The position numbers and the translations under genes were made by a program. DNA of 64,000 nucleotides from Treponema sp. (GTDB lineage Bacteria; Spirochaetota; Spirochaetia; Treponematales; Treponemataceae), in assembly GCA_045641045.1 (NCBI GenBank), contig JAZUGE010000057.1, positions 4,259-68,258 on the forward strand, written 5' to 3'. Numbering within the stretch: position 1 is the stretch's first letter; every line of letters begins with the position of its first letter. The notes under the pieces are model-generated. The model saw only the letters and a list, made by a program, of their open reading frames with translations. It did no database searches and had not been told where the DNA came from. Positions 3,490 to 42,957 of this stretch are shown here, in pieces.

Positions 3490-4857
3490 TTATTTTTCAA
3501 GTCTAACTCGTGCAGCTCTTGCGTGTCCTGCAAGACCTTCTGCATCACCTAAATGTCCAGCTGCTTCTGCACTGGCAACTGCACCCTTTGAGCCTTCGAT
3601 TGTTCGTAAAGTTGTAACTGTCTTTAAGAATACACGAACACTTAAGCCTCCGGTAAACCTTGCACTACCACTTGTAGGCAGTGTGTGATTTAACCCTGCT
3701 GCGTAGTCTCCAAATACTTCGGCACTTCCATGTCCAATAAAAAGAGAACCATAATTGTGTACAAGACTGCAGGCCTTATCTCTTTCACTGCCTTGAGCCA
3801 TAGCAAGCTCAAGGTGTTCAGGAGCTTTTCGGTTTGCAGCTTCACATGCCTGTTCTATTGTATCAGTAATAATTATACGACCACAGTTCTTTATACTTTC
3901 AGCTGCTGTTGACCGTGTACTTAAAGTTTCAAGCTGACTTTCAATCTCTAAAGCAACCTTTTGGGCAAGCTCCATATCACAGGTAGCCAATACAGGCTGT
4001 GCTACAACATCATGTTCAGCCTGTGCTAAAAGGTCAGCTGCAACCCACTTTGGATTTGCAGTTGAGTCAGCAATAATAAATACTTCAGTAGGACCTGCAA
4101 CCATATCAATGCCTACTGTTCCGTACACAAGTTTTTTAGCCTCAGCAACAAACTTGTTGCCAGGACCTACAATAACATCTACTGCCGGTATACTTTCAGT
4201 ACCAAAAGCCATAGCACCAATTGCCTGAGCACCACCACAGGCAAATACCTTTGTAGCTCCACAAATATATGCTGCAGCCATGATATTTTGATCTGCATAT
4301 GGCTTACCGCCAACAAAAGGTTTACCACTGACTCCAAGCCCTTCACTCTCTGCTGAAGACAAATCGTCAGGATGCACTCTTGGTGGAGTACATAGAATTA
4401 CTTCTTTTACACCTGCGGCAACTGCAGGAACAACAGTCATTACAACAGTTGATACTAAAGGAAATCTTCCGGCAGGAACATAAACACCAGCTTTTTCGAC
4501 ACTGATATTTTTTTGACCTGTAAAAACACCTTCTTCAAGTTCAACTTCAAAATCATCAAACGACTCACGCTGTTTTTTTGCAAAACGCAGCGCAAGGTCT
4601 GCACTGTATTTTAACGATTTGTAAAGGTCAGGATTTTCGAGCTGCATTTTTTCGGCAGCGGCTTTAAGTTCATGATGAGGTATTTCAAAAGTAACTGGGC
4701 TTGATATATCAAATCTAGCACCATATTCTTTAAGGGCTGCATCCCCATTTGTTTTAACATTTGTTAAAACATCGTTTACGGTTTCAATAGAACCGCCAAA
4801 GTCTCTTCCGTTAAAGAAAGAGTTTTCGATTTCTGAATACTTTTGAATTTTTATCAT
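3490..4857 (-). CDS. hisD: Histidinol dehydrogenase
   Basis: GVYVPAG, IVGPGNKFVAEAK, IDMVAGPTEV, DLLAQAEHD, APEHLEL, GDYAAGLNHTLPT motifs. Confidence 0.97.
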   Translation of the reverse strand: MIKIQKYSEIENSFFNGRDFGGSIETVNDVLTNVKTNGDAALKEYGARFDISSPVTFEIPHHELKAAAEKMQLENPDLYKSLKYSADLALRFAKKQRESFDDFEVELEEGVFTGQKNISVEKAGVYVPAGRFPLVSTVVMTVVPAVAAGVKEVILCTPPRVHPDDLSSAESEGLGVSGKPFVGGKPYADQNIMAAAYICGATKVFACGGAQAIGAMAFGTESIPAVDVIVGPGNKFVAEAKKLVYGTVGIDMVAGPTEVFIIADSTANPKWVAADLLAQAEHDVVAQPVLATCDMELAQKVALEIESQLETLSTRSTAAESIKNCGRIIITDTIEQACEAANRKAPEHLELAMAQGSERDKACSLVHNYGSLFIGHGSAEVFGDYAAGLNHTLPTSGSARFTGGLSVRVFLKTVTTLRTIEGSKGAVASAEAAGHLGDAEGLAGHARAARVRLEK

Positions 4858-28977: not shown

Positions 28978-30243
28978 TTAACAATTATATTTACTAATTC
29001 CGTTGATTATGTACTTAAAAATTTGGCGCAGTATCTTTTTAAGATCTTCGCCGACAACTCCATGATGAGTACACTGGAGCACTAGGGCTGCAGGAACCGA
29101 TGAAATCCACAGCATAAACTGTTTTGAGTTTAAAAGCAGACCCAAATCTGGTTCTTTAAGCAGTTTTGGAAGTTTTTCAGTCCATGGATTTGGTATATCA
29201 AGCTCAGGCATGCTTTCTCTCATGTCAAAGGTCAAAAGCCATCCGCATATAGGCAAAATTGAAGGCTTAATAAGCATATACTCTAAAACCGTTCTTTGAG
29301 ATATATACATATATTCAGTAAGATTTTTTGCCTCAGAACTGTTTTCCACGACAATGACATTTAAAAGTGCGAACTCTTTTAAAATAAGAGTCTTTATCAT
29401 GTGCTGCTTATTATCAAAATACTCATACAAGCTGCTCTTTGCCAAGTTAAGTTCAGTTGCAATACGTTCAATAGTAACACCACCTAGTCCATATTGATTT
29501 ATTACCTTAGCAAGAGCTGTAAAAATACGGTCCTCATTTGGATATTGAGATGCATCTATTGAGCATATTTTATCAAGTTCGTCCAGACGTCTGTCTGTAA
29601 GGTTACTTGGACAAAGCAGGCTGTCCCCAGTTGTGGTTCCTCTTAAACCATGCAAAATAAAAGTTACAAGTTTATCTGAAAAATCTTTTGCGGAGCACTC
29701 TTTGTTTCCTATTGTCAGCATCTTATGTCTAACTTTTAAAAAATAAAACATCGTGATACCACAATACAGAGCCTGGGTAAAATGATTAAAATCAGTTATT
29801 ACAAGTTTGCCATCAGACGACATATTAAAATAGCTGTCTAAGTTTTTTACCCCACGTTTTTGCATCTCTTCACGGATAACCTGATCAAAGTTGCTTTCTC
29901 TGCAAAGGCATCCAACCATATAATTTACGTAAAATGGATTATCTGCAAAAAACTCGATAAGGTTTGTAAACGGAACACGACTTGCCTTACCACTCTTTAT
30001 GTCACTTTGAGCTGCAATCTGTAACAGATAGTCTCCCAACATATCAAAAAAGTGCATACGCATGGCATCAAATACATCATCTTTCGAAGCAAAATGACGG
30101 TAAATTGCGGCTTTACTTATACCAACCTTCTGAGCTAAATCGTTTAATGAAAATATCCCCATACCGCTATCGTCACAAAACGAAAATGCTGCATCTAAGA
30201 GAAGTTCTTTAGTTGATTTGATTCTAATTATTTCTTCTGCCAT
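28978..30243 (-). CDS. TetR/AcrR-family regulator with two tandem TetR units
   Basis: HTH 1 SLNDLAQKVGISKAAIYRHF; HTH 2 TIERIATELNLAKSSLYEYF. Confidence 0.88.
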   Translation of the reverse strand: MAEEIIRIKSTKELLLDAAFSFCDDSGMGIFSLNDLAQKVGISKAAIYRHFASKDDVFDAMRMHFFDMLGDYLLQIAAQSDIKSGKASRVPFTNLIEFFADNPFYVNYMVGCLCRESNFDQVIREEMQKRGVKNLDSYFNMSSDGKLVITDFNHFTQALYCGITMFYFLKVRHKMLTIGNKECSAKDFSDKLVTFILHGLRGTTTGDSLLCPSNLTDRRLDELDKICSIDASQYPNEDRIFTALAKVINQYGLGGVTIERIATELNLAKSSLYEYFDNKQHMIKTLILKEFALLNVIVVENSSEAKNLTEYMYISQRTVLEYMLIKPSILPICGWLLTFDMRESMPELDIPNPWTEKLPKLLKEPDLGLLLNSKQFMLWISSVPAALVLQCTHHGVVGEDLKKILRQIFKYIINGISKYNC

Positions 30244-30247
30244 AAAC

Positions 30248-30301
30248 ATGTTACCGAACAGTCGGTAACATAAAAATACCGAACAATCGGTAACATGTCA
30301 A
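30248..30301 (-). promoter_or_regulatory. Promoter with twin palindromic operator for the TetR-RND operon
   Basis: ATGTTACCGA-ACAG-TCGGTAACAT (30248-30271) and TACCGA-ACAA-TCGGTA (30277-30292). TTGACA(30301-30296)-N17-TATTTT on the minus strand. Confidence 0.85.
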
Positions 30302-31138: not shown

Positions 31139-32158
31139 ATGGTCAACATATTACCTATAGCAAGTGGGAAAGGTGGGGTAGGTAAAAGTTCCATTGCAGT
31201 CAATCTCGCCATAACTCTTGCCAGAAAGCAAAAAAAAGTTATTTTAGCTGACTTTGACCTTGGTGGAGCAAACCTTCACACTCTTTTAGGAATAAAAAAT
31301 AACCACGCCGGCATCGGAAATTTTGTTTATAAACAGACTCACAGTCTGTCGTCTCTTTTACAGCCTACTCAGGTACAAGGATTGTCCTTTATTGCTGGCG
31401 ACTGTCTGTATCCAGGCACTCCTAACATGGACTATTTTACAAAATGCAAGATTGTAAAAGAACTTAATACTCTTGATGCCGACTATATTATACTGGATTT
31501 AGGTGCAGGTACAACCTATAACACTCTTGATTTATTCTTATTAACTAAAAACTCCTTAATAGTGACAACACCTGAACTTACATCGATTCTTAATGCCTAT
31601 TCATTTTTGAAAGCCGCTGTTTTCAGATTTTTTTGCAGGCAGTTTACTTCAAAAAGTGATGAAAGAAAAACTATAGATGAATTCTTAAAGCTTAGCCCAA
31701 ACGGTAGCGAAGCAAGTTTTTCAGAACTAGTTCAATACATGACAAATCTGTTTCCTGAAACTGCCCCACAGGCAATGCAGATACTCAGAGATTTTAGACC
31801 ACAAGTCATTGTGAATATGGGTAAAACTTCAAATGACCTTGAAATGGCCAAACGACTGAGATCATTAGCTCAAAAAAAGTTAGATACTAACATAGATTTT
31901 ATTGGATTTTTGCCAAAGGATGATAAAATTAGTTTATCTGTAGCTAAACGAACTCCGTTATCCCTATGGGAACCTGACTGTGAGTTTGTAAAAGCCATTC
32001 AAACAGCTGCTGTACGTATAATGCAGCACACATACACTTGTGAACATGCAGATATGTTTACAAATAATGATGATAGGGATTTAACAGTTCTTACTGAAGA
32101 GTTTAACAATAATGCAATAGCTGTTCCTGCAGCTGCAGACAAAGGATTGAGTTTATGA
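31139..32158 (+). CDS. MinD/FlhG-like P-loop ATPase
   Basis: Deviant Walker A SGKGGVGKS, ADFDLGGANLH, LDLGAG, VTTPELTS. Confidence 0.88.
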   Translation: MVNILPIASGKGGVGKSSIAVNLAITLARKQKKVILADFDLGGANLHTLLGIKNNHAGIGNFVYKQTHSLSSLLQPTQVQGLSFIAGDCLYPGTPNMDYFTKCKIVKELNTLDADYIILDLGAGTTYNTLDLFLLTKNSLIVTTPELTSILNAYSFLKAAVFRFFCRQFTSKSDERKTIDEFLKLSPNGSEASFSELVQYMTNLFPETAPQAMQILRDFRPQVIVNMGKTSNDLEMAKRLRSLAQKKLDTNIDFIGFLPKDDKISLSVAKRTPLSLWEPDCEFVKAIQTAAVRIMQHTYTCEHADMFTNNDDRDLTVLTEEFNNNAIAVPAAADKGLSL

Positions 32159-33873
32159 ACATACAGGAAACGATAACGCAGATTAAAAAGATTAGCTCTA
32201 AAACTGAAGAGCTCTATTTGAAACTTGGAGAACAATTTCCGACTCTACTCACAAAGACAAGCAGCAAATCTTTGGATAACCTCAAAAACATGCTTGAGCA
32301 GCTCAAAGTATTAAACAATAACTCCAGCAAAAAAGAAGGTGCACTTTTTGACAGCTATGCTGAAAAGTATAACCCTCTATTTGAGCGCCTCAATATGAAA
32401 ATTGAGGATTTGTCTAAGCTTAACAACATGATTGTTGATATTAAGGAAGACAGTGAACAGATGGAGCTTATTGCTCTTAATGCAATGGTTATCTCTATTA
32501 AGTCTGGAGAAAAAGGACAGGCTTTCTCTCGTATCACTGAAAATCTTCAGAGACTTTCTAATGATATGTTTACATATTCAGACAAGCTTATTGAAGAAGA
32601 AAAGCTTCTTATTGACCATATTAATAATCTGAAAAGCATATTTTCTGGTATTATCCAAGCTCAAAAAGCTTTGTCGGACAAAGGTTCAAGCGGTAGCTCA
32701 AGTATTACAAGTTTTATCAACGGACTCGAGGATCCAATTACTGTATTGGAAGCTCACGTTGAGTCTATATATAAACCAATACAAAAGGCAATGGAAGGCC
32801 TACAGCTTCAGGATATGATCAGGCAGGCAATTGAACATGTGGAAGCCTGTCTTGCTGAAATACATGAGGACCACACAAGCATCCCTGTCTGTGAGGAGGC
32901 CCTTGACTGTGTAACTTTTAATATTGAACTGTATCAGCTTGCTTCTGAAGTTTTAGATGATGTTAACAACTATGTAAAACAAAGCCTCGATATATTTAAC
33001 GAAAACTGGATGTCTGTAATTGATCTCCTTGACTCGATTGAAAACGAAAAAATGGATTTTGAGTCACGTTATCTCAATGATTTTAAGCCAACGGAAGAAA
33101 ACATCAAGCTTCAGATGTCAAAAATCATTTCAAGCTTTAAACACATGATAGACGGATTTAGTACATATCATTACGTACAAAAGGATCTTGTTCACGTTTG
33201 CCAGAACATTACAGAAAAAGCAAGAACTATGAATGCTGTATTTGAAAATCTTAGACCAGTAATGAGCCGTCTGCACCATGTTCGTATATTACAGCAGATT
33301 GAAGTTTCAAAAAATGATGCGATAAGCTCAGTTAGAGATTCTGTTACCGATATGGATAACCTTATTAACTCAGCAAACAATGACCTTGATGAGATGGAAG
33401 CACTCCTTGACTCATTTATAAGTGATACAGGCAGTATGATAAAAGAGTTTACAACATCAATTGCAGATGATAATGAAAAAATGGAACACATAAAATCTGA
33501 TAAGGATAAGTTTTTTGAGGAACTTAACATATGTAACAATAACCTGTCGGATATTATCAAAAGCTTTGATGTTTTTCCTGATGGATTTCAGTCTCGCTGC
33601 GTAACAGTTCAGCAGGCTTTGCAGGACTTGAGAGGAGTTGGAGATCAGCTTACAGAACTTAGCCTGCAGATGATTGAAGACAGCAAGTTTTACAAAACAA
33701 AAAAAGATGAGCTGCTTAAAGAGCGTGGTTTAACATCGTGGGAACTGCGAAACAATAAATTTGCTGATTTAATACAAAACTTTACAATCACTGCTCATAA
33801 AGAAGCTGCTGGTAAGATTGGTGGGTTTGAAATTGAAAAAGGTGCTGAAAGTGGAGATATAACCTTCTTTTAA
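32155..33873 (+). CDS. Soluble coiled-coil protein with degenerate chemoreceptor signalling domain(s)
   Basis: EQMELIALNAMVISIKSGEKGQAFSRITENLQRLS aligns to the MCP hairpin tip; no TM segment; ends in GDITFF. Confidence 0.65.
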   Translation: MNIQETITQIKKISSKTEELYLKLGEQFPTLLTKTSSKSLDNLKNMLEQLKVLNNNSSKKEGALFDSYAEKYNPLFERLNMKIEDLSKLNNMIVDIKEDSEQMELIALNAMVISIKSGEKGQAFSRITENLQRLSNDMFTYSDKLIEEEKLLIDHINNLKSIFSGIIQAQKALSDKGSSGSSSITSFINGLEDPITVLEAHVESIYKPIQKAMEGLQLQDMIRQAIEHVEACLAEIHEDHTSIPVCEEALDCVTFNIELYQLASEVLDDVNNYVKQSLDIFNENWMSVIDLLDSIENEKMDFESRYLNDFKPTEENIKLQMSKIISSFKHMIDGFSTYHYVQKDLVHVCQNITEKARTMNAVFENLRPVMSRLHHVRILQQIEVSKNDAISSVRDSVTDMDNLINSANNDLDEMEALLDSFISDTGSMIKEFTTSIADDNEKMEHIKSDKDKFFEELNICNNNLSDIIKSFDVFPDGFQSRCVTVQQALQDLRGVGDQLTELSLQMIEDSKFYKTKKDELLKERGLTSWELRNNKFADLIQNFTITAHKEAAGKIGGFEIEKGAESGDITFF

Positions 33874-34490
33874 TGAACCGCTATTTTGACTTACATTTTA
33901 ACAGTAATATTGTCACAATTTATCCCGGAGAGTTTTACTCAAGTAAGGGAGAAGAGCTTATTTCCACTATTTTAGGCAGTTGTATAAGTATTACTCTATA
34001 TGACCCTAAAAGCAGGATAGGTGGTATGAACCATTTTATGCTTGCCCGTAACAACAAAGTTGGTGTAGAAACAGGAAATACACTTATGGGTAGATTTGGA
34101 GAGTATGCCATGCAGCTTTTAATTGATGACTTAGTCTCAAAAGGTGCAAATCCGAAAAACTTCGAAGCAAAAGTTTTTGGCGGAAGTAACATATTTAATA
34201 TGCCCGAAAAAACAGGAGCTCAAGTTGGAGCAGTGAACATCGACTTTGCATTTGATTATTTGAACAATCACAGTATAAAAATTATCAACTCTGATACAGG
34301 CGGCATCAAGCCACGAAAAATTTTTTTTGATCCTGTCACATCAAAGGTTTTCTTAAAATATGTTGAGTCAAATGTAAAAGACCGTAATGCTCTTTTATCA
34401 AAAGAAGAAACCTACCTGCGCAATATTGTTGAGCTTGAAAAAAAAGCAGAACAGTATTTTCATTTTACAGGCGGCAAGCACAACTCCTAA
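33873..34490 (+). CDS. cheD: Chemoreceptor glutamine deamidase
   Basis: IYPGE, TILGSC (catalytic Cys), GGMNHFML, AKVFGG, DTGG..PRKI.F. Confidence 0.93.
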   Translation: MNRYFDLHFNSNIVTIYPGEFYSSKGEELISTILGSCISITLYDPKSRIGGMNHFMLARNNKVGVETGNTLMGRFGEYAMQLLIDDLVSKGANPKNFEAKVFGGSNIFNMPEKTGAQVGAVNIDFAFDYLNNHSIKIINSDTGGIKPRKIFFDPVTSKVFLKYVESNVKDRNALLSKEETYLRNIVELEKKAEQYFHFTGGKHNS

Positions 34491-34653: not shown

Positions 34654-35160
34654 TTATTCTTCTGACTCATCAGGAACCGCAGGTCCATGACGCTCAACAT
34701 CGCCTTCAATAAACTCAAGAATACTTCGTAAATCAAGAACAAGGATAAACTGATCTCCTTTGCGAGACACAGACGTAACAAAGTTTTTCTGTTCTTCAGG
34801 AATACCATAATTTGCACTACCTGCCTGTATCATCTTTAGGCTACTGACAACATCAACACTGTCTGCTATTATGCCAAGTTCAAGAGGTTTTTCACCTTCC
34901 TGAGGTACTTCCATAACAATGACTGATGTTGTACTTAAATCTTCAGACGGCTTAAAACCAAAAAGCACACGAAGATCAATAACAGATACAACAGAACCAC
35001 GAACATTCATTACACCTTTTAAATATGAAAGTGAATTTGGAACAGGAGTAAGTTCGGTAAACTCAAAAACTTCTTTTACATAAGATACTGGAACAGAAAA
35101 AATACCTGTACTGAGATTAAATGTAAAAAACGAATTCTCATCCTTATTGTTGATTTCCAT
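34654..35160 (-). CDS. cheW: Chemotaxis coupling protein CheW
   Basis: VKEV....LTPVPNS..YLKGVMNVRGSVVSVIDLR, GIIADSV. Start moved to ATG 35160, after a GGGAG SD. Confidence 0.93.
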   Translation of the reverse strand: MEINNKDENSFFTFNLSTGIFSVPVSYVKEVFEFTELTPVPNSLSYLKGVMNVRGSVVSVIDLRVLFGFKPSEDLSTTSVIVMEVPQEGEKPLELGIIADSVDVVSSLKMIQAGSANYGIPEEQKNFVTSVSRKGDQFILVLDLRSILEFIEGDVERHGPAVPDESEE

Positions 35161-35309
35161 ATACATTCTCCCCAATTTATCGTTAATGTTATTTTAATAA
35201 ACAAATCCAGCTAGTGGTTATAATTATTTATTATAAATAAATTTAAATAAACATTTAAGTAAAGTTCTAGTTTATAATTTTAACAAGCTAAAAGCGGGAG
35301 AGTTTTATA

Positions 35310-35624
35310 ATGGCTGAAAAAAAAGTAAGTACTGAGACAATTGTTTGGAAAGGTACAGCAGGTATTGAACAGGCTCACATTTTAAAAGATAGTCTTTTGG
35401 CAGCTTTTGAAAAAGCAGATTCAGTACAGCTCGATATTTCGTCTCTTGAGGATATTGATATTACTGGTATCCAGATAATTCTTGCAGCAAAAAAAGAGGC
35501 CACTAAACTAAACAAAAGTTTTTGTCTTACAGGTGTGATTCCACAACCAATTCTGGAGTTTACAGAAGCAAACAGCATTCACTTTGATGCCCTGCTTAAT
35601 AATAGTATTAAGGAGGCCAAATAA
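35310..35624 (+). CDS. STAS-domain protein
   Basis: LDISSLEDIDITGIQII pattern; TAATG overlap with cheA. Confidence 0.85.
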   Translation: MAEKKVSTETIVWKGTAGIEQAHILKDSLLAAFEKADSVQLDISSLEDIDITGIQIILAAKKEATKLNKSFCLTGVIPQPILEFTEANSIHFDALLNNSIKEAK

Positions 35625-37696
35625 TGCTTGAACAGTTAAATTCAGTATTTTTTGAAGAAGCAAACGAGCTTTTAGACAATCTTGAAGAACAGCTTTTAAC
35701 TTTGGAAGAACATCCTGATGATACAGAAACCATCAGTGCAGTATTTAGGGCAATGCATACAATAAAAGGCTCATCTGCGATGTTTGGCTTCAATGATATA
35801 TCATCCTTTACACACGAAGCTGAATCTGCGATGGATCAGGTACGAAATGGATTTGTACCAGTAAAGCACGAATTAATTGATTTACTCCTTAAAGCAAGAG
35901 ACCACATACACGCTCTTTTAGATGCAGGTTCTGAAATTCCGCCAGATCTTAACGCAGCATCACAAGAGCTTATAAATGCATTTATTGAATATGTTGTTGC
36001 AAATGGTGGTAATTCATCAAAAGGCTCAGCTCCTGCAGCACAGACTCAAGCATCCGTATCCTCTCAAAAAGAAGAAACCTGGCGTATTAAGTTCAGACCT
36101 TCTAATACAATCATGCAAAACGGAACAAGACCAGAACTTTTGGTAAAAGAACTTACCGAGATGGGAAAAGCAACTGTAGTTCCATTCTATACTGACTTAC
36201 CATCTCTTTCCGAAATGGACAGTGAGCTCTGTTATTTTGCATGGGACATCATATTAACTACAAATAAAAGCGAAAATGACATTAATGATGTATTTATCTT
36301 TTTGGACAGTGAGTCGCATATATCTGTTGAAAAAATCGATATAGATCCGTCTTCTCAAACAAAAATTGGCGAAATTCTTGTTAACCGAAATGATATTACA
36401 AAAGAAGAACTTGATAAAATTATCAACGAACACAAGCAGTTGGGGCAGATTCTTGTCGAAAAAAAGATTGTTTCACAGCAGCAAGTTACTTCGGCTCTTG
36501 CAGAGCAAAAACATATTAAATCAGTACAACCTGCCGAAGAATCTTCAATACGCGTAAGCTCAAAAAAACTTGATCAGCTTTTAGATCTTGTAGGAGAACT
36601 TGTAACCTTTAATGCTCGTCTTGACCAGCTTGCAATACGAAACAATATGGTTGCTTTAAAAAACTTGAGCGAAAACTGTGGACGACTTGTAGTTATGCTT
36701 CGTGATACATCAATGGATATGCGCATGGTTCCTATCGGAACATTGTTCACAAGATTTCGCAGAACAGTTCGTGACTTAGGTCAGCAACTGGGAAAAGATA
36801 TCGAAATGGAAACTGAGGGCTCTGAAACTGAAATGGATAAAAACGTCATTGAAAAGCTCAATGATCCATTGCTGCACCTTATCCGCAATTCAGTTGATCA
36901 TGGAGTTGAGTCTCCTGTAGAACGTAAGGCAGCTGGCAAACCAGAGCAAGGGCGTGTAGTTTTATCTGCAAAACACTCCGGAGCCTTTGTAATGATATCA
37001 ATTATTGATGACGGACAAGGCCTTGATAAGGAAGCCATACGACAGAAAGGTATCGAAAGAAGTCTTATCACTGCGGACCAACAGTTAACAGACAATGAAA
37101 TATACAACCTTATCTTTTTACCAGGTTTTTCGACATCAAAACAGGTAACTTCGGTAAGTGGACGAGGTGTTGGTCTTGATGTTGTAAAAAAGGATATTGC
37201 AACTCTTGGCGGTTCAGTAGAAATTGAAACCGAAAAAGGTAAGGGAACTACCTTCATACTAAAGATTCCTTTAACACTGGCAATTATTGATGGAATGCTT
37301 GTTTCAGTAGGTTCTGTAAAATATATCATACCTCTGAACACAATAAACGAGTGTCTCTCATTTAAACAGACTGTTACATCAGACAGCAGAATGTTTCCAA
37401 AGGCAGACTCTCATGGCAAAGATGTTCCTAGTCTTTATTTGAGATCATTCTTCCATATACATGATCCTTTACCACAAAGACAGGAAGTTGTAACTATACT
37501 TGATCAAAAATCATTAACAGGAATTGTTGTTGATAAGATTCTGGGTAATCAGCAGATTGTAATAAAACCACTAAGTAAACTGTACAAAAACTGTACGGGT
37601 ATCAATGGTGCTGCTGTTCTAGGGGATGGATCTGTTGCATTAATTCTTGATGTGCTTAAGCTTACTGAACTTATTCACATTCATGAAAAGGGATGA
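35624..37696 (+). CDS. cheA: Chemotaxis histidine kinase CheA
   Basis: Hpt AMHTIKG, SIRVSSKKLDQLLDLVGEL, HLIRNSVDHG, DDGQG, GFST, GRGVGLDVV, C-terminal CheW domain. Confidence 0.96.
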   Translation: MLEQLNSVFFEEANELLDNLEEQLLTLEEHPDDTETISAVFRAMHTIKGSSAMFGFNDISSFTHEAESAMDQVRNGFVPVKHELIDLLLKARDHIHALLDAGSEIPPDLNAASQELINAFIEYVVANGGNSSKGSAPAAQTQASVSSQKEETWRIKFRPSNTIMQNGTRPELLVKELTEMGKATVVPFYTDLPSLSEMDSELCYFAWDIILTTNKSENDINDVFIFLDSESHISVEKIDIDPSSQTKIGEILVNRNDITKEELDKIINEHKQLGQILVEKKIVSQQQVTSALAEQKHIKSVQPAEESSIRVSSKKLDQLLDLVGELVTFNARLDQLAIRNNMVALKNLSENCGRLVVMLRDTSMDMRMVPIGTLFTRFRRTVRDLGQQLGKDIEMETEGSETEMDKNVIEKLNDPLLHLIRNSVDHGVESPVERKAAGKPEQGRVVLSAKHSGAFVMISIIDDGQGLDKEAIRQKGIERSLITADQQLTDNEIYNLIFLPGFSTSKQVTSVSGRGVGLDVVKKDIATLGGSVEIETEKGKGTTFILKIPLTLAIIDGMLVSVGSVKYIIPLNTINECLSFKQTVTSDSRMFPKADSHGKDVPSLYLRSFFHIHDPLPQRQEVVTILDQKSLTGIVVDKILGNQQIVIKPLSKLYKNCTGINGAAVLGDGSVALILDVLKLTELIHIHEKG

Positions 37697-38583
37697 TGAT
37701 GGAACAGACAAACGACAAAAGTGCCGTGAATACCTTTGGAGTTTTAAAACCTACAGAGATATCCAATGAGCAGTTTCAATCAATTGCAAAGTTTATAGAG
37801 ACAAATGTTGGTATAAAGATGCCTGACTCAAAAAAACTTATGGTGCAGTCGCGTCTTTATAATCGACTTAAAAGTCTTAACATGAAAAACTTTGAACAAT
37901 ACATCAGTTATGTTTTTTCAAACACTCCTGATGCCCAGGAAGAAATAGCATTAATGATAAATGCTATTACGACAAACCTGACTCATTTTTTTAGAGAAAG
38001 CCAGCACTTTGATTATATGACACAGGTTGTGCTACCTGAATTGACAAACAAAGGTATCCCAAAAGTCGAACTGTGGTCTGCCGGGTGTTCTAGTGGAGAA
38101 GAACCTTATACTTTATCTATTGTTATGCAGGAGTTTATATCAAAAAATACCGGTGCAATAAAGGATTACAGAATATATGCCACAGATATATCGTCGAGGG
38201 TTTTAGGAATTGCCACTAATGCAGTTTATACCATGGAAAGTATAAAAGATTTGGATTTTAACATTAAGAAAAAATACTTTCTAAAGAGTAAAAATCCAGC
38301 AGAGCAAAAAGTTAGAGTTAATAAGGATACTCGTTTAAAAGTAACATTTAACCGACTGAATTTTATGGATTCTGTATACCCGGTAGATACACAGAAACAT
38401 ATCATTTTTTGCCGGAATGTGTTGATTTATTTTGATAAACCAACACAGGAAGCTGTAATACGCAAGCTCGTACACAATCTTGTTCCAGGAGGTTATTTAT
38501 TTTTAGGACATTCAGAAACTATATTTGGCATGGATCTCCCGTTGGAAAATGTGGGACCAACTATTTTTAAGAAGACAGAGTAG
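37693..38583 (+). CDS. cheR: Chemotaxis methyltransferase CheR
   Basis: TTNLTHFFRE, WSAGCSSGEEPY, ATDIS, IFCRNVLIYF, LGHSE. Confidence 0.96.
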   Translation: MMMEQTNDKSAVNTFGVLKPTEISNEQFQSIAKFIETNVGIKMPDSKKLMVQSRLYNRLKSLNMKNFEQYISYVFSNTPDAQEEIALMINAITTNLTHFFRESQHFDYMTQVVLPELTNKGIPKVELWSAGCSSGEEPYTLSIVMQEFISKNTGAIKDYRIYATDISSRVLGIATNAVYTMESIKDLDFNIKKKYFLKSKNPAEQKVRVNKDTRLKVTFNRLNFMDSVYPVDTQKHIIFCRNVLIYFDKPTQEAVIRKLVHNLVPGGYLFLGHSETIFGMDLPLENVGPTIFKKTE

Positions 38584-38595
38584 TCGGGAGAAGTT

Positions 38596-39843
38596 ATGAT
38601 AAAAGTACTAATTATTGATGATTCGGCTTTAGTCCGGCAAACCCTCACAGAAGTTTTACATAATGACTCAGAAATACAGGTCATTGGAACTGCTTCAGAT
38701 CCAATAGTAGGTGTTCATAAAATTCAAAATGAACGACCTGATGTAATTATTCTGGATATCGAAATGGCGAGAATGGATGGTCTTACATTTCTTCGGAAAA
38801 TGAATGAAACTGTAGACCCTATTCCTTGTGTTGTATGCTCATCTCTTGTCGAAAAAGGTTCCCCTGAGTCAATAAAAGCATATGAGTATGGAGCTGCCGA
38901 AGTAATATTAAAGCCGTCCTTTGGGACTAAAAGATTCATCGAAGAATCTTCTATATTAATCGGTGATGCAATCAGATCTGCCTATAGCACGACAGGAAAG
39001 ATAAAACAGCTTATACCATCCCAGGCAGAGTTACACTCATCTGGCTTTGACAGTAATAAACCTGTACAAAAAACAAACGTTGCAGCAAGTAAAAAAACTG
39101 CGACTCCAGTACAGGCAAGACCTGCATCTTCAGCACAAGTTATACCAAAACAAAAGACAGCAAGAGAACCTTTACCGGAGAACGGACGTAGAATTCAACC
39201 AAAGTTATCTGCCGATGTTATACTCGAAAAACCAAATCCTGCCTTGGCTCCAACGGATATTACACCTCCTGTTGTAGTAGTAGGAGCAAGTACAGGTGGT
39301 ACAGAGGCTTTAAAAGATTTTCTTACAATGCTTCCTCCAGATTCGCCACCTTTAGTAATTGTTCAGCACATGCCTGAACATTTTACAGCAGCCTTTGCAC
39401 AGCGCCTTGACGGAATTTGTAAAATTCACGTAAAAGAAGCTCAAAACGGAGATAGAGTTTTAAAAGGACAGGCATTAATTGCTCCTGGAAATTATCACTG
39501 TCTTTTAAAGCGAGATGGTAAAGAATACTACGTTGAAGTAAAGGAGGGACCTTTAGTTTCACGACACAGGCCATCAGTAGATGTATTGTTCAGATCTGCA
39601 GCTCGTTATGCCGGCAAAAATGCCATAGGTGTTATCATGACTGGTATGGGTGATGACGGAGCAAAGGGTATGAGGGAGATGCATGATTCTGGAGCTTATA
39701 ACATAGCCCAGAATGAAGCAACTTGTATTGTATATGGTATGCCATGCGAAGCTGTAAAGGCTGGTGGTGTAGATAAAATTGTGCCTCTGCAGGAAATAGC
39801 ACAAAATATTCTTGCAGCAGCAAAGCAAAAATCTGTCAGATAA
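38596..39843 (+). CDS. cheB: Chemotaxis methylesterase CheB (REC + long linker + esterase)
   Basis: REC LDIEM; [18 protein letters not shown] and MTGMGDDG catalytic motifs. Confidence 0.96.
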
Positions 39844-39879
39844 TGACAGTAAAAAAATAAAGACAAATGGAGGCAAATT

Positions 39880-40248
39880 ATGTCTGATAAAAAAATCCTA
39901 GCAGTAGATGACTCAAACTCAATAAGAAAAAGTATATCCTTCATTTTAGGACAAGAAGGATATCAAATTACAGAAGCAGAAGATGGTGTTGATGCTCTCG
40001 CAAAAGCAAAAGCAGATAAGTTTAATCTTGTAATTACTGATATCAACATGCCAAACATGGATGGTATAGAGCTTACTAGACAACTTAGAGCTACAGACGG
40101 CTACAAGTTTACACCTATCATAGCACTTACAACTGAAAACCAGCAGTCTAAAATGGATGAAGGTAAAGCAGCTGGTGCTACAGGCTGGATTGTAAAACCA
40201 TTTACTGCAGAAAAACTTATTGCAGTTGTAAAGAAAATCATAGGATAG
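39880..40248 (+). CDS. cheY: Single-domain response regulator CheY
   Basis: [26 protein letters not shown]. Confidence 0.92.
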
Positions 40249-40276
40249 GTTTTTCTTTTTACATCAGGAGGAGTTT

Positions 40277-42475
40277 ATGAAAAGTATTCGTTCGGCAATA
40301 ACTCTGTTTATTGCAATGCTAATAATTGTTATTAGTTCTGCGTTAGTAGGTATATCTCTATATTTTTCAGGGGCCGCTGTAAAAACTACAGCATATACAA
40401 ACATGACGACTCTTGTAAAAAACATATCTAGCTATGCAGACGCTAAAATACAGGGAGACGTATTAACATTAAAAGCAGTTGCAACGAGAGAAGAATTGAA
40501 AAATGAGTCCATCTCTATTGAAAAACGAGTACGAAACATACACGCCCTTACAAAAGAAATTGATGATGCCAGATACTTTTTGCTTGTAGATATGGACGGC
40601 AACGGGTTCAACTCAGAAGGTAAATCCGTAAACATTTCTGACCGCGAGTATTTCAAAAAAGCAAAAGCTGGTATTCCATCTATTGAAGGTCCAATCATAA
40701 GTAAACTCCTCAATACAGCTGCAACTCTTGTAGCGGTTCCTGTTTATAATGAAATCGGAGTGATTAATGGAGTTCTCGCTCTTAACAAGGGAACAAAACT
40801 CCTTAGTGACATTACCAAGCAAATTGAGATTGGGGAAACAGGTGGTTCATTTATTATAAACAAGGAAACAGGTATTATCCTTGCAACAAACACAACAGTC
40901 GAGGATGGTATTGAAAACAGCTTTGAAAATATGGCAATCAGTGACCCTGCTTTTGAAGGCCTTGCAAAGCTTAGTGTAACAATGCGTGAAAATCAATCAG
41001 GTATCATGGAATTAATGGATCGTGGATCAAAATGTTTTGCAGCTTATTCAGACATCCAGGGAACTAATTGGTCAATTGCGATTACTGTTGAAGCAAGAGA
41101 GTTTATGTATGTTTTAAATCAGATGGTTGGCATTTTAGTAATAATAACTATCATCTGTATGTTACTCGCTGTTTTAGCCGGACGACTTTATGCAAAGACC
41201 CTGGCCGCCCCTATCGGTATGATAAAAGATTCTCTCCTCTTGATTTCAAAGGGTGACTTGAGGGTAAATAATGCAAGCGAAAAAGATATACGCAAACTAC
41301 ATAAGCGAAAAGATGAACTTGGACAAATGGGCTTAGCACTTAATAATATGCTTATGGCTCTTTTAAAAACTGTTTCACAGGTTCGTGAGTCTGCCATGAC
41401 AGTAAGAGCTGGTGGAGAACAATTAAGTTCATCAAGTCAGTCAGTATCATCTGGAGCAAGTAAGCAGGCTGCTTCTACAGAAGAAATGAGTGCAACTATG
41501 GAAGAAATGACCAGCAATATCAGGCAAAATGCTGATAATGCTGCCCGTACAAGTGATATAGCTCATAATGCCGCTTCAAACAGTGAGCATGGAGCTGAAG
41601 CCGTACGCGAAGCTGTTGATGCAGTAAAGACTATTGCTGAAAAAATCTCTATAATTCAAGATATTGCAGGACAGACAAACATGCTTGCATTAAACGCGGC
41701 TATTGAAGCTGCCAGAGCAGGAGAAGCAGGTAAAGGTTTTGCAGTAGTTGCCAGCGAGGTTCGAAAGCTTGCAGAACGAAGCCAGAGTGCTGCAGCTGAA
41801 ATAAAAGAATTGTCTGCTAAAACGCTCATAACAGCTGAAACTGCAGGCAAAACCATTGATAGTGTCATTCCGGATATTGAACAGACATCTAATCTCATAC
41901 AAGATATTGCTACAGCTTCTCGAGAGCAGGATAATGGTGCAACACAGGTAAGTGCAGCTATTGTACAGATGGATGGTGTTGTCCAGCAAAATGCTAGTGC
42001 TGCAGAACAAATGGCAGCTATGGCTGAAGAACTTTCGGCAGAAGCAACAAAACTTGTTACTGCAATAGACTTCTTCAAAACACCAGAAAAAATTATAACA
42101 GATTTTGCTGCTATATCAGAAAATACTGAGAAAAAGCAGCAAAAGAAAGATGATAAAACAGTCTCGACAAAGACTGCAGATAAAACGAAAAAAGACTCTG
42201 GTAAATCTGATAACAGTGATAAAAAAACTGTTAGACAAAAGCCAGACAATAAGCCTCTGGTAGAAAAAAAGGATAAAAACTCAGTCAGTAAGCAAACATC
42301 TGAACAGAAAACTGCAGAAGAGACAAAAACAGCACCTGAAAAGCTACCTGAAGAGAAAGATATACAAAAGCAGCCTAAAGACAACAATAATGCTGTTAGT
42401 GATAAGCCTGTATCTGGAACAATAACAAAAACTACAGCAGATCTTATCAGTGACTCTGATTTCGAGGAATTTTAG
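40277..42475 (+). CDS. Methyl-accepting chemotaxis protein (dCache sensor, HAMP) with C-terminal DFEEF pentapeptide
   Basis: Two TM helices, SDREYF Cache motif, [37 protein letters not shown], terminal SDFEEF. Confidence 0.95.
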
Positions 42476-42504
42476 TGTATATCGCAATTAATGGAGTATA
42501 GATT

Positions 42505-42957
42505 ATGAGCGAAAATGTTTTAACTTTTACCATTGATAACAACCATTATGGTGTAAATGTAAATTCCGTTATTGAAGTCCTTGATTTTTCAACTCCAACA
42601 GCAGTACCTTGTGCAGAGCCATATATCGAGGGGCTGATATACTCTAGAGAGCAAGGTATTACAGTTGTGAACCTAAAGAAGCGATTTGGTTTATCAGATG
42701 AAGCTTCAACAGATAAAAACAAAATTATTGTCGTTGAAATTCCATCTCCAACAGAAGAAGACGAAAATAACATTACACTATACGGACTTGTTGCTGACAG
42801 CGTACAGGATGTTATCACGATTGATAAGCAGGAGCTAAAATGCGAAGCTACAGCTCCAATACCAGATACATTTATCGAAATTGTATACAAATACAATGAT
42901 GAAACCGTGTTTAATCTGGAACTATCACAACTTTTTGTTAATACAGAGACACTTTAA
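42505..42957 (+). CDS. cheW: Chemotaxis coupling protein CheW
   Basis: LTFTID..HYGV....VIEV, AVPCAEPYIEGLI, VVNLKKRF, GLVADSV. Confidence 0.85.
   Translation: MSENVLTFTIDNNHYGVNVNSVIEVLDFSTPTAVPCAEPYIEGLIYSREQGITVVNLKKRFGLSDEASTDKNKIIVVEIPSPTEEDENNITLYGLVADSVQDVITIDKQELKCEATAPIPDTFIEIVYKYNDETVFNLELSQLFVNTETL

Follow-up and report, generated by a model that had tools for sequence, protein, structure and literature searches.

BB0569 of Borrelia has been classed as an atypical methyl-accepting chemotaxis protein (MCP) or cytoplasmic chemoreceptor (PMC10703414, PMC11723614). Its gene is the only one of the cluster cheW2-bb0566-cheA1-cheB2-bb0569-cheY2 that is involved in chemotaxis in vitro (PMC10703414), and the protein is polar in Borrelia and needed for chemotaxis, while "its specific function is unknown" (PMC5318424). 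Here we describe a relative of this protein from Treponema sp., encoded in a stretch of 64,000 nucleotides (the window) that covers positions 4,259 to 68,258 of contig JAZUGE010000057.1 in assembly GCA_045641045.1; coordinates below are counted from the first letter of the window. The gene occupies 32155-33873 on the + strand as an open reading frame (ORF) and, judging from its match to NCBIfam NF052273 and an AlphaFold2 (AF2) model, encodes a soluble, all-helical pseudo-receptor of 572 aa. Its ATG overlaps the stop codon of an upstream ParA-like gene (ATGA), and its own stop overlaps the ATG of cheD (TAATG). An initial annotation of this DNA had described the product as a degenerate chemoreceptor with no transmembrane (TM) segment, and the latter point is borne out, the highest Kyte-Doolittle mean over 19 residues being 0.88. 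We consider it highly probable that the protein belongs to the BB0569 family and is integrated into chemoreceptor arrays. Our best explanation overall, held tentatively because we place it a little short of an even chance, is that it is an array pseudo-receptor in which a soluble partner docks at the remodelled adaptation site.

The NF052273 model ("BB0569 family chemotaxis protein") matches residues 22-550 of the target at E 4e-11, collinear with model positions 33-567 of 590, and the score, 42 bits, is far below the 1000 bits set as the curated cut-off for an equivalog. A family profile built from 123 representatives, reaching down to about 20% identity, recovers six Borrelia BB0569 orthologues over their full length (1e-83 to 1e-89), and these orthologues score above 1000 bits on NF052273. 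Direct comparison of the target with BB0569 by blastp gives E 2.6e-11 at very low pairwise similarity. On these profile matches we regard the target as a homologue of BB0569 and not an equivalog, that is, as a distant member of a known, poorly understood family. The initial annotation missed both this identity and the linkage to cheD, which offers a rival role for the conserved motif discussed below. A search of 90%-identity clusters returned 326 matches; among the 120 listed, identity is 49-61% and every named protein is a Treponema "hypothetical protein". Among 50%-identity representatives there were 631 matches at E<=1e-3, with full-length members of 560-610 aa and identities down to ~20%. 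The best 80 genome loci all belong to Spirochaetota (Treponema, Spirochaeta, Alkalispirochaeta and Sediminispirochaeta). The family profile also recovers a form of ~645 aa throughout a Brachyspira-like lineage, and in Leptospira-like genomes it matches the generic MCP part only. The family spans Treponema, the Brachyspira-like lineage, Borrelia, Spirochaeta and Alkalispirochaeta, mostly under the database label hypothetical protein.

The likeness to BB0569 extends along the whole chain. Both proteins are of ~570-600 aa, without TM, HAMP or sensor domain; both have an MCP tip near residue 110-130, a Q-x-Q-D-x3-Q motif about 100 residues past it, a second conserved hairpin (RFQNINIASKIEV), an FT(I/L)xxHK block and a hydrophobic ...LF C-terminus, and both are encoded in a STAS-CheA-CheB-...-CheY cluster. 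The same signature blocks (MCP tip, Q-x-Q-D-x3-Q, second hairpin block, FTxxxHK and ...(L/F)F-COOH) are found in the target and in the Borrelia loci L083-L088 and L099, where the motif reads LQFQDRLTQSLYH, the block FTLFIHKK and the end ..VILF. The gene set of the cluster in the window is that of the Borrelia cheW2-bb0566(STAS)-cheA1-cheB2-bb0569-cheY2 cluster (PMC10703414). What differs is gene position: the target gene sits between those for a ParA-like ATPase and CheD, whereas bb0569 sits between cheB2 and cheY2, with cheD not within the surrounding 16 kb. Two remote relatives of 617-627 aa (L098:6347-8230 and L100:6246-8099) adjoin CheA/MCP genes, carry the motifs LQLEDVVRQ and LQREDLIRQ and end in ..NVILFQE and ..KVLVF, respectively; in these, Leu stands in place of the tip Phe and there is no FTIxxHK block. 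A 522-aa paralogue from a Treponema metagenome, P0173, has both hairpin tips (ELIALNAMVISIKSGDSGRAF and LQHVRVLQEIEVSKNDAI) and lacks the QDxxxQ patch as well as the FTIxxHK/...FF tail, and so constitutes a natural patch-less variant. As functional hints from domain fusion we rejected both P0173, being a paralogue without motif and tail, and P0230, which looks like an assembly chimaera.

Homology shows that the first ~235 residues make up a genuine MCP signalling hairpin whose tip is intact. We read hairpin 1 as a true signalling hairpin because the family profile matches solved MCP domains in the PDB (TM0014, 3G6B, at 5e-18; TM1143, 2CH7, at 5e-14; Tsr, 1QU7, at 3e-9) and because the tip residues N109, G118 and F124 are invariant, with G121 present in 121 of the 123 representatives. 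The single target sequence already finds the soluble receptor TM0014 (3G67) at 3e-6, and TM0014 is the best solved relative of this hairpin. The tip itself (aa 99-135, DSEQMELIALNAMVISIKSGEKGQAFSRITENLQRLS; window 32449-32559, + strand) turns at residue 117 in the AF2 model, matches the conserved MCP pattern LALNA..EAARAGE.GRGF with ELIALNAMVISIKSGEKGQAF, and is predicted to contact CheA/CheW and neighbouring receptors. The Pfam MCPsignal model (PF00015) gives 23.3 bits (E 6.5e-5), below its gathering cut-off of 34.6, and all family members tested are likewise below it. The tip that had been noted at about residues 99-135 is therefore present, and calling it degenerate overstated the case in view of the profile matches and invariant residues. 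No known ligand-binding domain was detected in the target by Pfam scan.

A weaker second tip-like segment had also been noted, and it too is supported. It lies at aa 373-386 (LHHVRILQQIEVSK), within the second hairpin turn at aa 372-390 (RLHHVRILQQIEVSKNDAI; window 33268-33324, + strand), and the AF2 model breaks from helix to turn to helix at residue 387. I382, E383 and K386 are conserved across the family, and the block RF..I....(R/K)IE(V/L).(K/R) recurs in all six deep lineages. This second tip resembles IEAAR, but its spacing from Asn differs, and an internal duplication is unsupported (hhalign of N-half against C-half, Prob 16%). The AF2 model, computed on the 123-sequence alignment, is entirely helical, with a predicted local distance difference test (pLDDT) score of 91.4 and a predicted template modelling (pTM) score of 0.75. 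On the side of hairpin 1 it has helices 3-32, 38-116, 118-203 and 206-234; after a loop follow helices 247-307, 317-386 and 388-469, and beyond another loop come helix 478-524, a pair of short helices and the disordered tail. The long helices 38-116/118-203 and 317-386/388-469 are matched in length (79, 86, 70 and 82 residues), and 3-32, 206-234, 247-307 and 478-524 form a shorter upper set. Four long and four shorter helices fit a single-chain four-helix bundle with both tips at one end, and the helix lengths and the pTM predict that the chain mimics a receptor dimer in cis. TM0014 and TlpT, by contrast, are homodimers of a single hairpin, and TlpT has methylation sites, whereas the target has no methylation consensus and a different C-terminus. 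A Foldseek search of the model against the PDB returned generic long coiled coils only (TM-scores 0.1-0.2) and was uninformative.

The most conserved block outside the tip, [IVL]-Q-x-Q-D-I-I-R-Q-S-L-D-H across the 123 representatives, contains the only DxxxQ in the target, D220-x3-Q224. It forms the core of a patch at aa 216-229 (LQLQDMIRQAIEHV; window 32800-32841, + strand) on helix 206-234. About two DxxxQ are expected from composition, so the observation stands or falls on conservation. The initial annotation would have been refuted had the two residues not been conserved, but both are: D220 is present in 121 and Q224 in 120 of the 123 representatives, down to ~20% identity, and both in six of six deep lineages. 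Q217 is found in 119 and Q219 in 111 (His in 11), no family member has Glu at Q217 or Q224, and position 219 is Glu only in remote lineages. The motif reads LQLQDMIRQ in the target, LPREDIVRQ in the Brachyspira-like lineage, IQQQDIIKQ in the g16 lineage, LQFQDRLTQ in Borrelia, LQLEDVVRQ in the f19 lineage and LQREDLIRQ in the f51 lineage, so that D220 and Q224 are the sole motif residues invariant in all six. Residue 227 is Glu in the target and Asp in most of the family; neither D227 nor H228 is conserved in Borrelia or the remote lineages.

The position of this patch is informative. It lies at +98 to +105 from the tip Glu, and the consensus methylation sites of the MCP encoded in the same cluster lie at +88, +95 and +102; Tsr E493 is also at +102. 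Canonical [ASTG]xx[EQ][EQ]xx[ASTG] methylation/deamidation sites number zero in the target and seven in the neighbouring MCP. Given these offsets and the lack of any canonical site, we read the motif as a remodelled site of methylation helix 2 (MH2), which appears to replace the eight-residue window [AS]xx[EQ][EQ]xx[AS] of normal receptors. The family-averaged hydrophobic moment places Q217, D220, Q224 and residue 227 on the outer face of the helix and Q219, I222 and I226 in the core, and the DxxxQ patch is on this reckoning probably exposed on the surface. In the AF2 model a helix break, marked by a conserved Pro, lies before the motif, and further conserved residues of the same upper module are E18, Y/F21, F/Y28, P29, D251, F255 and F478.

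A second conserved element lies at the C-terminus, where the stretch at window 33781-33870 (+ strand) comprises the block FTITAHKEAAGK and a disordered acidic/Gly linker that ends in GDITFF-COOH. F543, T544, I545, K549, G567 and F572 are at least 90% conserved. GDITFF itself comprises residues 567-572, has pLDDT below 50 and is predicted to be disordered. The hydrophobic tail that had been pointed out earlier is real: F572 is present in 120 of 123 representatives, and a C-terminus of the form hydrophobic-x-hydrophobic-Phe recurs in all six lineages, as ..GAESGDITFF in the target, ..SGEVTLF in the family at large and ..GSVILF in Borrelia. With an acidic, Gly-rich linker before it, this tail has by its sequence the look of a short docking peptide, distinct both from the DFEEF end of the neighbouring MCP and from the CheZ C-terminal peptide. 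With it, each feature that the initial annotation listed (tip, second tip-like segment, D220/Q224 and GDITFF) was found at the residues it named.

Which soluble protein might be docked is suggested by the genomic neighbourhood, where the linkage to CheD is the strongest signal that we add. CheD (205 aa, window 33873-34490, + strand; Pfam CheD 6e-26, NCBIfam PRK13487 3.9e-54) is encoded directly downstream on the same strand in 42 of the 68 loci with enough flank, at a median gap of about 10 nt. The pair is kept in Spirochaeta/Alkalispirochaeta loci whose family proteins are only 24-27% identical, where it is flanked by the gene of an ABC-transporter ATPase and by unrelated genes, and no further che gene lies close by. 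Alkalispirochaeta alkalica DSM 8900, a non-pathogenic relative, is among the carriers of the gene pair (L062). In a phylum sample of 301 genomes, CheD is present in all 72 family-positive genomes and in 222 overall; among Treponemataceae, the family and CheD occur together in five genomes and are both lacking from 24, without a discordant case. The triad Thr32/Cys37/His54 is retained by 48 target-adjacent CheDs. These neighbouring CheDs (the one in the window and those of 48 related loci) are about 195-205 aa long, with a poorly conserved C-terminal extension of ~40 aa past the Pfam CheD domain, and a length of about 160-175 aa is found for many other CheD frames of spirochaetes. The cheC-cheD pair is a classical gene arrangement, and CheD reportedly stimulates CheC in Thermotoga, as Chao et al. 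are said to have found in 2006. Like cheC in B. subtilis and T. maritima, the target gene lies directly upstream of cheD, and like CheC the target could present a receptor-like helix to CheD (PMC3513319), although CheC is a 200-aa alpha/beta protein and the target is a coiled coil without CheC fold or motif. CheD binds the receptor modification region, B. subtilis needs it to activate the kinase, and its contact with CheC is at a receptor-like site (PMC3513319); in Borrelia, it complexes with CheX and enhances it (PMC5318424). We favour CheD as the partner because a receptor-derived patch stands at the CheD docking position and its gene and cheD are translated together. Docking of CheD by the distal patch and the tail is a possibility we rate at somewhat under even, from motif position and gene linkage.

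We propose that the protein works as follows. The target tip would plug into the CheA/CheW baseplate and help to build or stabilise the array, as suggested by MCP homology and published work in Borrelia. The second, unrelated hairpin would pack beside the first to give a four-helix bundle of ~170 Å with two tips at one end, and this single-chain bundle could occupy the slot of a receptor dimer in the lattice. At the other end, the MH2 window would have been rebuilt into an outward-facing Q-D-x3-Q patch, which together with the flexible hydrophobic tail could form a dock for a soluble chemotaxis enzyme, CheD being the candidate best supported by genomics. By tethering or titrating CheD inside the array, the target might then set kinase activation. 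Several points weigh against this explanation. Docking of CheD is argued from register, conservation and gene linkage and not from physical contact, and we infer the hairpin packing and the exposure of D220/Q224 rather than read them from the model. The motif is off the canonical CheD/CheB/CheR consensus, with Ile at the methyl-accepting position. CheD is not adjacent in one clade (L016-L036) or in Borrelia, and in Treponemataceae the accessory cluster moves as a unit, so that co-occurrence there is not specific to CheD. Finally, the sole invariants of all lineages are a D and a Q spaced by four and preceded by Q/E/H, a pattern that resembles a CheZ/HisKA_3-type phosphatase site and that docking would not obviously require.

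If D220 and Q224, with Q219, were such a site on a four-helix bundle, the target would be an array-resident CheY-P phosphatase: the tail would capture CheY-P as the C-terminal peptide of CheZ does, docked CheD would stimulate or gate the reaction, and the protein would be a functional analogue of CheC in a CheC-CheD-CheY-P circuit. We consider this doubtful on the sequence comparisons at hand, though several observations speak for it. The two residues are invariant in six deep lineages while their neighbours vary, and Glu never replaces the Gln residues, which suggests that the amide is selected. In the CheZ consensus, AxxFQ-DxxxQ, conservation is highest at the Gln directly preceding the Asp (PMC7750401); Q219, with Gln in 111 of 123 representatives, matches that position, a match at the level of the motif only. 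The segment reads FQDLTGQ in E. coli CheZ and FQDRLTQ in Borrelia BB0569. The sole hhalign alignment of the family to CheZ pairs D220 with D143 and Q224 with Q147 in the same hydrophobic register, and in a comparison of 92 motif segments with the whole of Pfam, more segments matched CheZ than any other family (13 of 92, best E 0.004); such matches are not independent, as all rest on the same few residues. As in CheZ, the (F)Q-D-x3-Q would belong to one long helix of what is predicted to be a four-helix bundle, and a flexible linker leads to a conserved hydrophobic C-terminal peptide ending in Phe. HisKA_3 kinases likewise have DxxxQ as their phosphatase motif (PMC3510030), an independent origin that provides a precedent for its convergent use on a helical bundle. 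CheD enhancement of Borrelia CheX (PMC5318424) would fit such a circuit. So would the CheC stimulation and cheC-cheD pairing mentioned above, and a CheY gene adjoins the family gene in several lineages, as in Borrelia (bb0569-cheY2) and a few other loci; the order in the Brachyspira-like operon is target-STAS-CheY-CheA-CheW-CheR-CheD-CheB.

Against a phosphatase, no similarity to CheZ reaches significance. Family profiles, full-length or restricted to the motif, give hhalign Prob 0.2-0.3% and E 0.2-0.3 against CheZ; Pfam CheZ (PF04344) does not match the target at E<=1; the best family member reaches 15.9 bits (profile 90-146) against a cut-off of 30.7; and no CheZ chain is among the PDB profile-search matches. 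Homology to CheZ is therefore not supported, and of the "receptor-phosphatase hybrid" in the initial annotation there remain a soluble chemoreceptor derivative with an MCP tip and the conserved D220/Q224. Unlike CheZ, the target would form its bundle in cis from two hairpins of one chain, with an MCP tip. The CheY-binding peptide at the CheZ C-terminus (..DDLLDSLGF; DDLLxSLGF in general form) is not matched by the target tail, which shares only an acidic linker and a terminal Phe with it, and spirochaetes use CheX. Nor is the target of CheC/CheX/FliY type, being all-helical and lacking the CheC/X motif (D/S-x3-E-x2-N-x22-P); an HDxxxQ H-box is likewise absent from it. The absence of cheX, cheC and cheZ from the cluster, noted earlier, holds within the window and is weak as an argument for a phosphatase, since the genome has one CheX, its only CheC/CheX match, on contig C69. 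That genome has no CheZ, and a weak CheZ match (17.9 bits) proved to be a TolC-like outer-membrane protein. The CheX (160 aa) lies in C69:20860-25674 with an 804-aa ORF (presumably CheA), a putatively cheW-like ORF of 503 aa and CheY (144 aa), which looks like a canonical treponemal che operon. In the phylum sample, CheC/CheX-type proteins occur in 272 of 301 genomes and in all of the 72 family-positive ones except one 80%-complete metagenome-assembled genome (MAG); phyletic complementarity with known phosphatases was looked for and is absent. With CheC/CheX so nearly universal, the family is never the only candidate phosphatase.

Mutant phenotypes bear on the same question. The Borrelia bb0569 mutant reportedly runs constantly and loses its polar arrays (Zhang et al. 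are said to have described this in 2016), and the cheX mutant is said to flex constantly (attributed to Motaleb, 2005). High CheY-P causes Borrelia to flex and low CheY-P to run (PMC5318424). The reported bb0569 phenotype thus resembles kinase loss, the opposite of losing a major phosphatase, and BB0569 is no visible substitute for CheX; the loss of arrays in that mutant would, however, mask a second function. The site would also lie about 150 Å from the baseplate, where CheY-P is made.

Other roles for the conserved polar residues seem less probable still. They might be purely structural, a buried or interfacial layer or hinge that sets the register between hairpins or relays a signal, with Q219 in the core, side-chain pairs D220-Q224 and R223-residue 227, and no partner, so that the protein would be a pure scaffold. 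The core position of Q219 by hydrophobic moment, the helix break with its conserved Pro just before the motif and the clustering of conserved residues in the same upper module are all consistent with this, and a scaffold is the only experimentally supported function in the family (PMC5318424). We nevertheless consider it improbable: the outer face is the predicted location of D220, Q224, Q217 and residue 227, swaps of D/E, Q/N or Q/E are usually tolerated in purely structural polar pairs and none is seen here, and the conserved disordered tail and the CheD linkage would be left unexplained. A true cytoplasmic sensor, in which a polar cluster of the upper module (E18, Q217, Q219, D220, R223, Q224, D227, H228 and D251) binds a metabolite or metal ion and signals down hairpin 1 to CheA, would accord with conserved residues from four helices meeting in one module and with the classification of BB0569 as an atypical MCP or cytoplasmic chemoreceptor (PMC10703414, PMC11723614). 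It appears very unlikely given that no known ligand-binding domain was detected, that H228 and D227 are lost in Borrelia and the remote lineages, and that methylation sites for adaptation are absent. Least probable of all is that CheD deamidates Q217, Q219 and/or Q224 to Glu after assembly and so turns the pseudo-receptor on. An active-looking CheD is encoded next door and the motif stands at the MH2 modification position, but the sequence is off the [AS]xx[EQ][EQ]xx[AS] consensus. Genuine deamidation sites usually alternate Q/E among orthologues, as in Tar/Tsr, and here Glu never appears at Q217 or Q224, and at 219 only in remote lineages.

Returning to an array pseudo-receptor that docks CheD, the gene upstream may hint at how such a complex is placed in the cell. 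At 31139-32158 (+ strand) lies a ParA/MinD/FlhG-like P-loop ATPase of 339 aa (Pfam ParA 4.6e-21, CbiA 8.8e-16) with the deviant Walker A GKGGVGKS; its best solved relative is FlhG (4RZ2, 8e-24), followed by FleN and MinD. It is directly upstream of the target gene only in the close Treponema clade (about 18 loci) and is absent beside family members outside that clade; in three related Treponema loci (L007, L009 and L014) the ATPase gene lies on the far side of cheD, on the opposite strand. R. sphaeroides has the soluble chemoreceptors TlpT/TlpC together with the ParA-like PpfA, and there the genes of the ATPase and of a cytoplasmic receptor are reportedly coupled (TlpT-PpfA; PMC3964821, PMC6829392). 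The target gene is likewise directly coupled to a ParA-family ATPase gene, although this ATPase is nearer FlhG/MinD than ParA/PpfA and is limited to one Treponema clade. By analogy with the positioning modules PpfA-TlpT and ParC-ParP, which it recalls, the FlhG/MinD-like gene would suit a role in organising the array; in this Treponema clade only, the co-translated ATPase probably positions the complex.

The remainder of the accessory che cluster, assigned by Pfam scans, extends over 34654-42957 and encodes CheW (- strand), STAS, CheA, CheR, CheB, CheY (39880-40248), a dCache-HAMP MCP and CheW. The dCache-HAMP MCP (40277-42475) has the seven consensus methylation sites already referred to and a Lys/Glu/Pro-rich linker of ~100 aa before its terminal pentapeptide DFEEF, which is likely a CheR/CheB tether; one further MCP of the genome (C69:15352-17301) has an acidic aromatic end, ...DADFEQI. 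A small STAS protein recurs in che clusters that contain the family: it has 104 aa in the window (35310-35624), 103 aa in Borrelia (bb0566, L099:4951-5262) and 87 aa in the Brachyspira-like lineage (L096:8281-8544). At the equivalent position, L100:2068-2331 has an 87-aa ORF. A STAS protein of this kind may be another constant part of such che systems. Outside the cluster, 28978-30249 encodes a 423-aa regulator in which Pfam finds two stretches of TetR_N, so that a single chain carries two DNA-binding domains.

BB0569 is indispensable to chemotaxis by the Lyme disease spirochaete, and its specific function is unknown (PMC5318424). What we add is the spread of its family; an invariant tip, a DxxxQ on a former methylation site and a conserved tail; a tie to CheD; and a predicted single-chain mimic of a receptor dimer. 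It is conceivable, if unlikely on present sequence evidence, that the BB0569 family adds to CheZ and the HisKA_3 kinases a third, independently arisen class of response-regulator phosphatase with DxxxQ, a converted chemoreceptor embedded in the array and gated by CheD. Its active site would then occupy the old methylation site, with the tail capturing CheY-P and CheD docked at the same place, an arrangement we hold to be equally uncertain. If true, this would give spirochaetes a counterpart of the CheC-CheD-CheY-P circuit and a built-in co-localisation of kinase and phosphatase. Either way, the vague designation of "atypical MCP" can now be exchanged for two sharp hypotheses, a dock for CheD or a CheZ-like phosphatase.

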